In this document: positions 52,018 through 58,659 of the stretch, piece after piece
Numbering within the stretch: position 1 is the first letter of the stretch
How the letters are laid out: each line of letters starts with the position of its first letter
Translations under genes and position numbers: made by a program
Notes under the pieces: model-generated
The model's database searches: none
Seen by the model: only the letters and a program-made list of their open reading frames with translations
What the model was told of the DNA's origin: nothing
DNA from: Candidatus Aenigmatarchaeota archaeon
GTDB taxonomy: Archaea; Aenigmatarchaeota; Aenigmatarchaeia; QMZP01; QMZT01
Direction of reading: 5' to 3'
Assembly: GCA_026397315.1 (NCBI GenBank)
Contig: JAPLVC010000001.1
Coordinates: 96,001 to 160,000, forward strand
Length of the DNA stretch: 64,000 nt

Positions 52018-52143
52018 ACAATCACTCGATTTTAAGTGATTTGTTTTATAGGTTTATAAATGTTACTTAATAGTGGTGAAGCTTTTTCTAATTTAAACGG
52101 GGCAGAACCTTTTTATTGCTGGTGCGGTTTAATTGATACTATT

Positions 52144-52247
52144 GTCCCGGTAGCTCAGCTGGCAGAGCGTTCGGCTGTTAACCGAAAGGTCGCACATGAG
52201 CTGGGGAACCATCTCGTGGACTAAAGGTTCGAATCCTGCCCGGGACG
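52144..52247 (+). tRNA. tRNA-Asn(GTT) with 31-nt intron in the T-stem (50/51; 52194-52224)
   Basis: Acceptor GTCCCGG/CCGGGAC; anticodon arm TTCGG-CTGTTAA-CCGAA; splicing restores GCAGG-TTCGAAT-CCTGC; BHB-like GGTC/GACT helix with GCA and AAA bulges. Confidence 0.93.
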
Positions 52248-52254
52248 TTAAAAA

Positions 52255-52274
52255 TGAGGGCTAACGCACCCTCA
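52255..52274 (+). terminator. hairpin plus T-rich tract after tRNA-Asn
   Basis: TGAGGG/CCCTCA stem followed by ATTTATTTTT. Confidence 0.45.
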
Positions 52275-52332
52275 ATTTATTTTTGTTAGAAATAGTTACA
52301 ACCAAATATAAAATTTTCAAGAAGTTTGGCTA

Positions 52333-52349
52333 TTGTCCACCTAGGACAA
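52333..52349. promoter_or_regulatory. palindromic operator-like site TTGTCC-N5-GGACAA
   Basis: Perfect 6+6 inverted repeat just upstream of BRE/TATA-like CAGAAAGGTTTAAAA. Confidence 0.4.
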
Positions 52350-52426
52350 ACATCACAGAAAGGTTTAAAATGATAAAACCTGATGTTAGTAATAACCTTT
52401 TTGAATCTTATACCCAATAAAAGACC

Positions 52427-52705
52427 ATGGAGCTTTTCGACGTGGTCGACAGGCACTGCAACATCCGCCTTCTCAAGACCAACTGCAACTTCAGGTTATG
52501 CGAGAAGCCGCCTGAGAAGGAAATGCTTATTTTCGAGATGACCATGAACACGGCCAAGAAGAAGGACATAATCTCCCTTTACCTCTGCCGCGAGCACTAC
52601 AATGAGATGGAAAAGGCACTTGAGAGCGTTATCGGCAGGTTCAGGAACGGCCGCGTCTACAGGATAAAGCAGATGGACGATAAGATAAACGTGGTTAGAT
52701 ATTGA
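52427..52705 (+). CDS. small putative zinc-binding protein
   Basis: CNFRLC and LCREH motifs; host-like codon usage. Confidence 0.6.
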   Translation: MELFDVVDRHCNIRLLKTNCNFRLCEKPPEKEMLIFEMTMNTAKKKDIISLYLCREHYNEMEKALESVIGRFRNGRVYRIKQMDDKINVVRY

Positions 52706-52730
52706 TTAAATAACAACACAAATTATTTTT

Positions 52731-53513
52731 ATGGGCTCTATTGTCACCTTAAATGATGTACTGAAAATCTACAAATCACAAAAAGCAGGCGAGATAGCTC
52801 TGAAGCCTTACAATAAATGGTTTCCTTTAAAGCCCTCACCGGAGCTAGCAGGCGTAGTTGCAGATTTGATATGTGACGGTCATCTTCAGGGCAATCCAAA
52901 ATGGAGAATAGATTTTACCTTCAAAATAAACGAAGAAAAGCTGAGATTCGAAAGGAAAATTGAAAAAATATTTGGTGTTAAAGGAAAAGCGAGGCCTTGT
53001 TATTCCAATATGTGGGGAGAAAGTTACAATTACGGTGTGAATTGCAAACCTCTGGCTAAAACTCTTTTTCTATGCGGAGTTCCCAGCGGCAACAAGGTGC
53101 TGGGAAATTTCGCTTTTCCTAAATGGATTCTTGAAAATAAAAATTATTTCAAAGAATTCACGAAAAGATTTTATAATTGCGAGGGCACTTGCTGGGGAGG
53201 TAAAAGCCCGGGCATAGGCTTTGAGATGTGGAAAGAAACTGGTAAAATCGACAATTTAAAAGAATTTCTGGAAGTCATAAGATGTGGCCTGAAAAAATTT
53301 TTCGATATAAAAACGACGGAAATTTTCACGACAAGTTCCGTGCATAACAGAAAGGATGGCTATGTGACAAGGCCTCTGAGGTTTTATATAAAAAGAAAAG
53401 AGTCTATATTTAAATTCTATAGAGATATAGGATTTGAATACGAAAAACAAAATAAATTGAAAAACATAATAGAAAATTGGGGCAGAACCTCTGTGGGAAC
53501 TGAAGTGCCATAA
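52731..53513 (+). mobile_element. free-standing two-motif LAGLIDADG homing endonuclease-like gene
   Basis: LAGVVADLICDG and FTKRFYNCEG helices, GVPSGNK..FPKWI, FYRDIGF; AT-rich; no intein splicing motifs. Confidence 0.85.
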
Positions 53514-53620
53514 CAGTAGCTCAGCCCGGGAGAGCGCTCGTATGTAGCGGGAATAATGAATCCCGCTTCATGGCGAAGCTGAAGACCGATAGGTCGTGGG
53601 TTCAAATCCCACCTGTCCCA
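53495..53620 (+). tRNA. tRNA-Phe(GAA) with two BHB introns: 4/5 (53499-53513) and 30/31 (53541-53577)
   Basis: Splicing gives GGGACAG/CTGTCCC acceptor, GCTC/GAGC D-stem, CTCGG-CTGAAGA-CCGAT anticodon arm and GTGGG-TTCAAAT-CCCAC T-arm; BHBs GTGG/CCAT (bulges GAA, AAC) and CGCT/GGCG (bulges CGT, AAG). Confidence 0.9.
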
Positions 53621-53656
53621 TATTTTATTTTTATTCTTTCCATCGAATCATTCTCT

Positions 53657-56913: not shown

Positions 56914-58659
56914 TTAATTTTTCTTATTTTTTATAATATTGCTAGTCTTGTAATCGCCCAGTTTTTCCCTGATTCTCACAATTTTACACACAATGCCATC
57001 TTCAGCCAGAAGCTTCGCTAGCGCTTTCTCGTCAGCCTTCTGGTCATGGCCCAGCGCTATGATATCCGGCATAGCCCACATTATCGTTTTTAAATAACTG
57101 CTTTCTTCTTTGCCCAAAAATGCACCGTCAACATAAGATATTTCTTCCATGACGGCCAATCGTTGCTTTTCCTCGTTAATAGGTAATCTTCCCTTAAAAT
57201 TTTTTGCAGTTTGATCTCTGGCTATTATGACTATCAACAAATCTCCCAATAATTTGGCGGATTTAAGCAAATGTAAATGTCCTGGATGTACTATATCAAA
57301 AACTCCTCCAGTAAGAACAACCTTGAATTTCATCCTACCTTTCTCATTTAGTGAATATTTTCCTGGGAGAAAACCAATTAATGACGATCTTCCTCGACTG
57401 CCTAAAAAAACTCTATCGCTCATCTTATTTACAAGACCTTCACGTAGGAGTTTGCTAACTATCCTTGCCGTTCTAGTATATGTTCTTTGACATTTTAAAG
57501 ATAATTCGGGTATTGTGAAAAAACCATATCTGAGTTCTAAAAGGTATGCTTTTTTTAAAAATTCAACAGAAGCTTTACTGTTAGGAAATTGATATTGTTG
57601 ATAGGAAGATAAAGCAACTTTTAATTTTTCCTTTTTATATTTCAAATCAGAACCAATTTTGGTTTCAAATTTAATAAGCTCACTTCTGTTGTCTATGTTT
57701 ATTTGCCAAACGCTAGAATCTGATTTGATTCCTTTGAACTTGGGTCCCACATATTCTATTCCGACTTTATCCAAAAGTTTGCAATCGCCCAACAGCAGAG
57801 GGGGTGGGGTTTTTTTGTCCCTGTTTACCAATCTTAATACAATTGACCGATGTTTCTTTTTTTGATTAAAATAAACAGAACCATCATCGTCAAAACATCT
57901 TCTAATAAAAGTCGTCAAAAATTTTTCATCGTTACCGAAAACAAAATTCGGAATATTCTGTTTATGTTTTTTCAAGTCCCTTTTAAACAAGCAAAGTGTT
58001 ACTAATGCAATAATCGCAGGTAATTTTATTGTATGGTTTGTTAAACTTTTATTCCAACCACCTTTAGGTTCTTCGATTTGACCAAAAATATTAAAAGCAG
58101 CATCCAAGAAGCTTTTTCTCATTAGAAATGCCTCTTTTTCATCACTTGCTTTTTTCTTCGTGTAGGCTGTGAAATTTTCATTTAAAAAGCCATCATGCAT
58201 GATTGAAGAGATATATAGAGCGCCATTATTTGTATTGAAATTGAAAGGTAGTTTGGGATTCAAAATGCTTTTCCTATAAGTTCCTTTGGGTGTTGTTAAT
58301 TCAAGAATATCTTGGTTCTTGATCAATTTAAAATTGTTAATATAATAAAGTATTTTTATCAAAAGAGACAATTTAATAAACTTTCCTTTATCTAGATTGT
58401 ATAAGGCAGGGCAGTATCTTTGTCTTATCTTCTCTCCCAAAAACCTGCCAAACTCTGTCAGATTTTTAAAACCTCCCGTTTTTAAGGATAGAAAAATTAG
58501 CTCACGCCCCTTTTTTTCTGTTAATCTTAAGCTGGTTGAAGGGTGCAAATTCCACAAAAATACAATTCCGGTATTTGGTGGTTTATTGAAAAAATCTTGA
58601 GATAACAATTTTTCATTGAAATTCTCAAACGCTTCTTTTAAAAAATCAATTTCAACCAT
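56914..58659 (-). CDS. ribL: LAGLIDADG + wHTH protein fused in frame to FAD synthase RibL
   Basis: YISSIMHDG and FIRRCFDDDG helices; C-terminal 139 aa (ATG 57333) with GGVFDIVHPGH, ARD, PDIIALGHDQ, KTSNI. Confidence 0.85.
   Translation of the reverse strand: MVEIDFLKEAFENFNEKLLSQDFFNKPPNTGIVFLWNLHPSTSLRLTEKKGRELIFLSLKTGGFKNLTEFGRFLGEKIRQRYCPALYNLDKGKFIKLSLLIKILYYINNFKLIKNQDILELTTPKGTYRKSILNPKLPFNFNTNNGALYISSIMHDGFLNENFTAYTKKKASDEKEAFLMRKSFLDAAFNIFGQIEEPKGGWNKSLTNHTIKLPAIIALVTLCLFKRDLKKHKQNIPNFVFGNDEKFLTTFIRRCFDDDGSVYFNQKKKHRSIVLRLVNRDKKTPPPLLLGDCKLLDKVGIEYVGPKFKGIKSDSSVWQINIDNRSELIKFETKIGSDLKYKKEKLKVALSSYQQYQFPNSKASVEFLKKAYLLELRYGFFTIPELSLKCQRTYTRTARIVSKLLREGLVNKMSDRVFLGSRGRSSLIGFLPGKYSLNEKGRMKFKVVLTGGVFDIVHPGHLHLLKSAKLLGDLLIVIIARDQTAKNFKGRLPINEEKQRLAVMEEISYVDGAFLGKEESSYLKTIMWAMPDIIALGHDQKADEKALAKLLAEDGIVCKIVRIREKLGDYKTSNIIKNKKN

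Follow-up and report, generated by a model that had tools for sequence, protein, structure and literature searches.

A predicted LAGLIDADG endonuclease gene joined to a twice-interrupted tRNA-Phe gene in an Aenigmatarchaeota archaeon: probable collaborative homing in DPANN

How archaeal tRNA genes acquire introns at odd positions is an open question. Non-canonical tRNA introns, including those at position 3/4, are known from Thermoproteales, and the 'intron transposition' mechanism behind them was called unknown in a 2014 review (PMC4090602); a 2026 preprint on Asgard tRNAs found no single intron route and leaves homing unmentioned (10.64898/2026.10.13.758758). The question is addressed here by a locus within 64,000 nucleotides of a Candidatus Aenigmatarchaeota archaeon (contig JAPLVC010000001.1, positions 96,001 to 160,000; hereafter the window), in which the 3′ end of an open reading frame (ORF) for a predicted LAGLIDADG endonuclease coincides with a 15-nt bulge-helix-bulge (BHB) intron at position 4/5 of tRNA-Phe. 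Comparison of this locus with its relatives suggests that it is probably a mobile cassette in which a nuclease, predicted to cut intron-less tRNA-Phe genes, and a protective micro-intron spread jointly, that is, an archaeal form of collaborative homing.

The tRNA-Phe locus and its nuclease

The features of the locus, numbered from the first letter of the window, are as follows.

52705–52713, + strand: TATA-like box, now before the nuclease gene; alignment with genome G002 makes it the homologue of the empty allele's tRNA-Phe promoter
52731–53513, + strand: gene for a predicted free-standing two-motif LAGLIDADG endonuclease of 260 aa, with D49 and E151 invariant
52733–52748, + strand: apparent decayed relic of tRNA-Phe nt 1–16, forming the first ORF codons (matches left at nt 1–3, 12–14 and 16)
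53479–53485, + strand: leader copy of the 5′ acceptor strand, coding W-G-R; proposed surrogate acceptor stem of the precursor
53491–53494, + strand: leader bases used by the BHB of the 4/5 intron, as judged from BHB geometry
53495–53498, + strand: tRNA-Phe exon 1 (nt 1–4)
53499–53513, + strand: 15-nt BHB intron at 4/5, coding the last four nuclease residues and the stop codon
53514–53540, + strand: tRNA-Phe exon 2 (nt 5–30)
53541–53577, + strand: 37-nt BHB intron at 30/31, a hairpin, variable in sequence among relatives and missing from some carriers
53578–53620, + strand: tRNA-Phe exon 3, with anticodon GAA, up to discriminator A73

The tRNA-Phe gene begins with G1 at 53495, and each of its two introns (intron 1, 53499–53513; intron 2, 53541–53577) has BHB geometry, with a 4-bp central helix, two 3-nt bulges and splice sites placed after the second base of the bulge. 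Removal of both leaves a 74-nt sequence that ARAGORN reads as tRNA-Phe(GAA) with a 7/7 acceptor stem. In the unspliced window ARAGORN calls no tRNA, because the introns hide them, and the unspliced tRNA-Phe gene scores 29.7 bits in Rfam. Intron 1 opens on a codon boundary of the ORF and supplies T-E-V-P-stop, just as a first-pass annotation made from the sequence had described; the ending that it gave for the frame after splicing, GGA CAG TAG, is likewise what the sequence holds. The BHB helix of the 4/5 intron draws on leader bases −2/−1, and splicing must therefore precede 5′ trimming; compensatory variants of the BHB helix occur in loci L038, L060 and L151.

The host genome (1.05 Mb, 91% complete), in which this tRNA-Phe is the sole copy found, belongs to Aenigmatarchaeota, a DPANN lineage; the closest named relative (94%) comes from a Candidatus Aenigmatarchaeota metagenome-assembled genome. 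It encodes the tRNA splicing endonuclease EndA (G000:C1) and contains a candidate RNase P RNA that scores below the Rfam cut-off, and no match to HARP (PF08745) was found in it. Among related loci, L151 has its tRNA splicing endonuclease gene (1647–2204) immediately after the cassette of nuclease and tRNA-Phe, and the EndA gene of L313 (1189–2376, − strand) is long, at 395 aa, which suggests a fused multi-unit type.

The ORF (52731–53513, + strand) has a GC content of 0.36–0.40, against about 0.5 in its flanks. The identification of its product as a LAGLIDADG protein, made in the first-pass annotation, holds by homologues and by fold, although the 260-aa query on its own has no LAGLIDADG match in Pfam: PF14528 (LAGLIDADG_3) matches 27 of 34 homologues, and a profile search in the Protein Data Bank (PDB) leads to intein endonucleases. 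The AlphaFold model (mean predicted local distance difference test score, pLDDT, 92.7) matches monomeric two-motif LAGLIDADG structures, with Foldseek E values from 2e-9, obtained for intein endonucleases, to 3e-6; I-SceI and I-DmoI are also among the matches. The motif helices of the model span residues 37–49 and 137–151, and the motifs end in D49-G50 and E151-G152, of which D49, G50 and E151 are invariant in the 34 homologues. Residues 255–260, which are coded by the tRNA end and the intron, are disordered in the model and unconserved across the family. On these grounds of sequence and modelled structure, the product is a predicted LAGLIDADG homing endonuclease.

Association of the nuclease with changes at the tRNA-Phe 5′ end

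Homologous loci were fetched from genomes and metagenomes regardless of neighbouring tRNAs and were dereplicated at 90% identity; the tree was a quick IQ-TREE run with Shimodaira-Hasegawa-like approximate likelihood ratio (SH-aLRT) support only and a midpoint root, and no order of events is read from it. The nuclease belongs to a clade of 76 rows (SH-aLRT 99), every one of which adjoins tRNA-Phe: 47 lie tandem upstream, 25 divergent upstream, and 4 are convergent or probably convergent. Rows outside the clade adjoin tRNA-Pro, -Trp, -Ile, -Arg or -Leu, and tRNA identity goes with nuclease clade. A free-standing homing endonuclease whose target gene is conserved would be expected to keep one neighbour in varying orientation (PMC2988022), and the constancy of tRNA-Phe beside a nuclease gene of varying position and orientation would fit this pattern.

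Sister nucleases stand directly upstream of tRNA-Arg, -Trp, -Pro, -Leu and probable tRNA-Ile in L162, L164–L168, L170, L171, L177 and L065, and several sister-clade tRNAs seem, by eye, to hold 3/4 or other 5′ introns. Five loci (L043, L049, L050, L052 and L057) are titled Methanosarcinales or Deltaproteobacteria, yet their nucleases lie in a mostly Woesearchaeota part of the tree; these titles may reflect mislabelled bins or transfer.

A BHB intron of 13–55 nt at 4/5 (3/4 in three cases) or 9/10 is present in 62 of the 76 clade rows, or in 52 of 63 after dereplication at 70% identity. Background tRNA-Phe genes were located with D-arm patterns in two samples drawn from GTDB, each of 251 genomes, and some loci were read by eye. 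Co-occurrence of nuclease and introns in relatives, which the first-pass annotation had proposed as a check, is borne out for this 5′ intron: in the Aenigmatarchaeota sample, all 10 carriers of the nuclease (7 genera, 5 families; one gene broken) have it, versus 13 of 129 non-carriers, and in the Nanobdellota sample 3 of 4 carriers, versus 2 of 109. The empty alleles sought by the same proposal also exist. In genus g1, the carriers G000 and G003 have the intron and their congeners G002 and G004 have an intron-less tRNA-Phe without the nuclease; in genus g6, G018 has both and G009 and G014 have neither. A nuclease-less tRNA-Phe with a 9/10 intron, L430 (G155:C20), carries three tandem copies of nt 1–9 at its 5′ end.

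Carriers that lack a 5′ intron, whose rows are spread over at least eight places in the tree, differ from the background in the same region. Thirteen of the 14 parsed deviate from the consensus at nt 1–3 or 8–14, compared with 24 of 148 background genes (the listed non-carriers from an unbiased pattern search, with differences counted by eye); nt 3 is not G in six of the 14 and in none of the 148. The fourteenth has an intron in the D-loop, right after A14, where L043 has one too. The 4/5, 9/10 and after-A14 introns and the substitutions at nt 3 and 10–13 all fall within nt 1–16, so that every parsed carrier appears altered within a stretch as long as a LAGLIDADG site. These alterations point to nt 1–16 as the predicted recognition site and are the strongest indirect support for protection.

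An unlikely alternative is hitch-hiking without protection, in which an active homing enzyme would have a site that the insertion itself destroys or that lies elsewhere nearby, and the intron would merely be co-converted. At tandem loci, the insertion splits the promoter from the tRNA and could itself remove a junction site. The 30/31 intron offers a second argument: it also travels with the cassette in the host family, though not family-wide, being missing in the close carriers L032 and L149. For the same reason this intron was rejected as a family-wide shield, and the first-pass suggestion that both introns spread with the nuclease stands for the 5′ intron, which tracks the nuclease throughout the family, and not for the 30/31 intron. 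Against hitch-hiking, however, about 20 loci are divergent, with the gene upstream on the other strand and the tRNA unsplit, yet 4/5 introns dominate there; moreover, the intron-less carriers are substituted in the same 14 nt, and two distinct intron positions, 4/5 and 9/10, each recur in separate branches of the tree.

Evidence of movement comes from L066, which shares with the window an apparent gene-conversion tract. The tract and its further features are as follows.

52100–53650, strand not assigned: apparent gene-conversion tract in common with the diverged L066 host (tRNA-Asn, 92-aa ORF, nuclease, tRNA-Phe)
52144–52247, + strand: tRNA-Asn(GUU), with a 30-nt BHB intron at 50/51 (52194–52223) on the side facing the second nuclease gene
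52265–52419, + strand: what an internal deletion has left of a second LAGLIDADG-like gene; G003 has the gene intact, L066 with a nonsense stop

By pairwise alignment, identity between the window and L066 is 97.6% across the nuclease gene, 98.6% across tRNA-Phe including its two introns, 97% at tRNA-Asn and 92% in the 92-aa ORF; in the flanks it falls to 80% in trm1, 82% in topoisomerase VI-A and 85% in the transcription factor TFB, a distance as great as that of either from nuclease-less congeners. The flanks of G003 are nearer to the window (87–92%) and its nuclease is further (93%). The shared tract, from about 52100 to about 53650 (1.55 kb, 90–99.5% identical), ends just behind tRNA-Phe. 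This one clear case of a near-identical tract in two diverged hosts, holding both nuclease gene and intron, suggests homing and gene conversion between DPANN lineages whose genes are just 80–85% identical.

The second LAGLIDADG-like gene beside tRNA-Asn (L031:1822–2691; L066:1821–2690) has lost about 700 bp in the window. The tRNA-Asn 50/51 intron is kept in the window, G003 and L066; L146 and L005 lack both gene and intron. A decay series is thus displayed at one locus. A 32% relative of the Asn-side nuclease (G000:C7:138749–139453) ends beside a tRNA-like gene (C7:139474–139531). An identical 12-mer stands at 52099–52110, before the tRNA-Asn TATA box, and at 53479–53490, in the tRNA-Phe leader copy; its 11-nt core occurs at only these two sites in the genome and is unconserved in L146, L005 and L007, and the repeat may be due to chance.

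Domestication of the protein, which would now serve the host either by assisting, in the manner of a maturase, the excision of a hard-to-splice acceptor-stem intron or by regulating the tRNA gene, is very unlikely. It would account for the co-occurrence with 5′ introns and for the apparent purifying selection on the nuclease (ratio of nonsynonymous to synonymous substitution rates, dN/dS, of 0.07–0.25 among close relatives, about 0.13), and LAGLIDADG maturases are indeed among the fold matches (bI3 maturase 2ab5, and 1p8k). Presence is patchy, however (9 of 251 Aenigmatarchaeota and 5 of 251 Nanobdellota sample genomes at a strict cut-off), identical introns occur without the gene, both acidic catalytic positions are invariant, and a lateral-transfer tract exists. 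Decayed copies exist as well: in G018 (L010, L438) about 65 residues are missing in frame from the interior of the nuclease, the gene is also interrupted by the end of a contig, and the stop codon in the 4/5 intron has been lost.

There is very little to recommend a lineage effect, by which intron-rich DPANN lineages would also gather nuclease genes beside tRNAs with no causal link between the two. The host genome does have many introns in tRNAs other than tRNA-Phe, and nuclease-less congeners share 9/10 introns. Nevertheless, the association persists when loci are stratified by other introns in the same tRNA (42/44 versus 10/104, and 22/34 versus 4/125), it persists within genera g1 and g6, and nuclease clades correspond to tRNA identity. 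Elsewhere in the host genome, intron-like hairpin repeats also lie in the 5′ leaders or trailers of tRNA genes, examples being C7:151079, C6:6262, C1:55652 and C7:84511 of G000.

Insertion point, leader copy and expression

The empty allele of G002 has, in order, the 92-aa ORF, a TATA box, about 33 nt, the intron-less tRNA-Phe and trm1. Its tRNA promoter aligns with the TATA-like 8-mer at 52705/52706 in the window, 25–26 nt 5′ of the nuclease ATG. The first-pass annotation had called this the only clear TATA box, with none before the tRNA. A regular-expression search, which recovers just 43–69% of ordinary tRNA promoters and so leaves room for an internal one, indeed found no TATA-like box at 26–40 nt upstream of G1 or of the leader copy, either in the window or elsewhere in its clade; but the box at 52705/52706 is not the only one, since further TATA-like 8-mers lie within the ORF at 53382/3 and 53409 (112 and 86 nt before G1), and some relatives have such a box inside the ORF end.

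When the ORF start was compared with the tRNA of the same locus in 23 tandem 4/5 loci, nt 2 and 3 matched in 83% and 74%, nt 11–15 in 65–91%, and nt 7–10 in 0–17%; at nt 7–10, the tRNA sequence would place an in-frame stop in the ORF start. Where codon 5 encodes Leu it is CTC in 18 of 21 loci, compared with 2% of other Leu codons, and divergent loci have no ORF-start match to the tRNA. The matches at nt 2–3 and 11–15 argue for insertion after about nt 16, with the promoter and the old 5′ end kept and a new 5′ end carried in. The nuclease gene thus appears to have inserted into the 5′ part of the tRNA, its first codons being the putative relic of nt 1–16, and not between the promoter and the tRNA, as had first been supposed. 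The resemblance of the ORF start to the tRNA 5′ end, seen already in the first reading, is accounted for by this relic. It is scarcely credible that the true 5′ exon lies at the ORF start and the whole gene inside a 780-nt 4/5 intron of the I-DmoI type: the start-codon region does pair 4/4 with the 3′ helix strand of the intron in the window, and an ORF-start exon gives a 7/7 acceptor stem in 11 relatives, but it leaves a C4·U69 mismatch in the window (6/7) and only 5/7 in G003, every parsed locus has a complete local exon with its own BHB, and a 4-nt exon does not explain a relic that reaches nt 11–16. In other family members (L005, L007 and L148), unrelated short ORFs lie between the 92-aa ORF and the tRNA-Phe promoter, and the site upstream of tRNA-Phe is an insertion hotspot.

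The leader copy (53479–53485) pairs 7/7, with one G·U, with the 3′ acceptor strand. A 7/7 copy is present in 18 of 42 tandem loci and, among nuclease-less alleles that have an intron, in 5 of 12; all 124 intron-less alleles and all divergent loci lack it. The copy follows the stem sequence of each host, and 22 of its 34 differences from the host's own strand preserve pairing. Replacing the copy with A's in silico lowered the mean BHB-helix probability from 0.58 to 0.33 across 38 loci, mainly for 9/10 introns, and forcing the BHB of the window costs 1.2 kcal/mol with the copy and 4.8 without it. In these models the copy probably aids splicing, and it may be a duplication scar kept as a surrogate acceptor strand. 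Nested splicing, with the leader copy as exon 1 of a 7/8 intron, was rejected on inspection, because a central helix is lacking whether or not the 4/5 intron has been taken out. Divergent 4/5 alleles (e.g., L061, L117 and L136) have no acceptor copy, and many have a leader complementary to the D-stem strand, by its sequence an apparent second way of extending the BHB.

Co-transcription of the nuclease mRNA with the pre-tRNA, as proposed, is likely. The first-pass annotation had further suggested that tRNA processing removes the stop codon and limits expression; this is geometrically possible in the window and is not a conserved design. Among 51 tandem loci, the stop lies before G1 in 30, in the intron in 14 and in the exon in 7, and G018 has lost the intron stop altogether, so a stop within the intron was rejected as a conserved arrangement. 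The overlap of five codons is best taken to reflect the first stop that the frame happened to reach, retained in one clade (64–100% identity).

Proposed mechanism and known systems

In the mechanism proposed for collaborative homing at this locus, the LAGLIDADG protein would cut intron-less tRNA-Phe at a site within about nt 1–16, and repair off the carrier allele would bring in the nuclease gene along with a replacement for the 5′ end of the tRNA, as the tract and the empty alleles suggest. By sequence similarity, the old promoter, the leader AT with G1 and the decayed nt 1–16 would have become the promoter, start codon and first codons of the cassette. A BHB micro-intron (at 4/5 in the window, elsewhere at 9/10) would split the site and render the replacement end immune, with base changes in the site taking its place in carriers without the intron. 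The host splicing endonuclease would excise the intron, the leader acceptor copy, as modelled, keeping the 3′ acceptor strand away until splicing is done. On a single transcript, by established processing steps, EndA would cut inside the ORF end, ligation would create a new stop two codons on, and RNase P would then remove that stop. Decay of the nuclease with persistence of the intron would finally leave orphan non-canonical introns.

Several points weigh against this account. The background patterns required an intact D-arm and missed 37–47% of genomes, and the compared loci are kin rather than independent, so the strength of the association is overstated. Three of five nuclease-less congeners in the 9/10 genera share the 9/10 intron, which fits either loss of the nuclease or introns that arrived first. 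The relic is weak in the window (6/15 matches), and the duplicated tRNA end is clearer in relatives. L066 is a single metagenome contig, and a second nuclease gene, beside tRNA-Asn, was formerly part of the tract and could have driven its transfer. Finally, the 4/5 BHB of the window is not its most stable ViennaRNA fold, with a helix probability of 0.2–0.3 without intron 2. Overall, the idea first put forward, that nuclease and protective intron spread together, fits the empty alleles, the co-occurrence, the substitutions and the conversion tract; what had to be given up are its insertion site, its stop-codon design and the role of the 30/31 intron.

The closest precedent is collaborative homing by F-CphI and the psbA group I intron of cyanophage S-PM2 (PMC6083498; PMC2988022). 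There, too, a free-standing nuclease gene neighbours a conserved gene with an ORF-less intron, a layout found here in 62 of 76 loci; there as here, the intron is proposed to protect its own allele from the nuclease, which would mobilise it. In contrast, the present system resides in a cellular archaeal chromosome and combines a LAGLIDADG enzyme, with predicted cleavage, and a tRNA gene with protein-spliced BHB introns of 13–55 nt; the tRNA promoter and 5′ end would be taken over, and immunity would arise through substitutions as well. Intronless homing by the seg and mob genes of phage T4, with SegB within a tRNA cluster (PMC2988022), shares a free-standing optional gene near tRNA genes, host promoters, co-converted flanks and transcript processing as a proposed limit on expression; unlike the present family, those enzymes are of the GIY-YIG or HNH type, the listed target of SegB is a tRNA intergenic region, and no tRNA introns are involved. 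The archaeal enzymes of rRNA BHB introns, I-DmoI and I-Tsp061I (PMC6125680), are likewise monomeric two-motif LAGLIDADG proteins with a BHB intron as partner, but their ORFs lie inside the intron, whereas here the overlap with the 15-nt intron is confined to 5 of 261 codons and is absent from most relatives; an intron-encoded enzyme of this type was rejected on the mismatched acceptor stem that the long-intron exon would give in the window.

As in Thermoproteales, BHB introns occupy acceptor and anticodon stems, several per tRNA, although the account in PMC4090602 names no nuclease partner and does not contain the word 'homing'. In Caldiarchaeum tRNA-Thr, a mobile element has stranded the tRNA 5′ fragment upstream and reconstituted the tRNA with one additional intron (Sugahara et al. 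2012, PMC3293823), as is proposed here; that case involves a putative recombinase or integrase with att-like repeats at one locus, in contrast to a homing-type family in several DPANN phyla with a decayed coding relic. An integrase element was rejected for the present insertion, which is one ORF with a LAGLIDADG fold and no integrase or recombinase gene. A literature search that left most subscription journals uncovered found no description of tRNA-adjacent LAGLIDADG genes in DPANN.

Should the proposed mechanism hold, a surrogate acceptor strand that enables splicing of an acceptor-stem intron would be an RNA device of a new kind. More tentatively, and with the balance still slightly on the side of doubt, DPANN may have many free-standing LAGLIDADG cassettes, each clade aimed at one end of a single tRNA gene, whose arms race with the host selects and spreads BHB micro-introns at that end, a surrogate acceptor strand allowing them to splice, and whose decay leaves introns behind; if so, they would be a main source of non-canonical tRNA introns in DPANN lineages and, to our knowledge, the first case of collaborative homing in a cellular genome that involves tRNA introns spliced by proteins. 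The family points to a set of unstudied meganucleases with predictable tRNA-gene targets. The locus brings together an enzyme, a predicted target (tRNA-Phe nt 1–16), an empty allele found naturally within the genus and natural alleles predicted to be resistant, enough to put the idea to the test in a single cleavage assay.

Two further genes of the host genome bear LAGLIDADG features. In a 581-aa ORF of the window (56914–58659, − strand), a cytidylyltransferase domain is fused to a region that matches LAGLIDADG_3 weakly (E 0.055), and another LAGLIDADG gene (G000:C1:57446–58170, − strand) has its stop codon within nt 3–5 of an intron-less tRNA-Ser(GCU).
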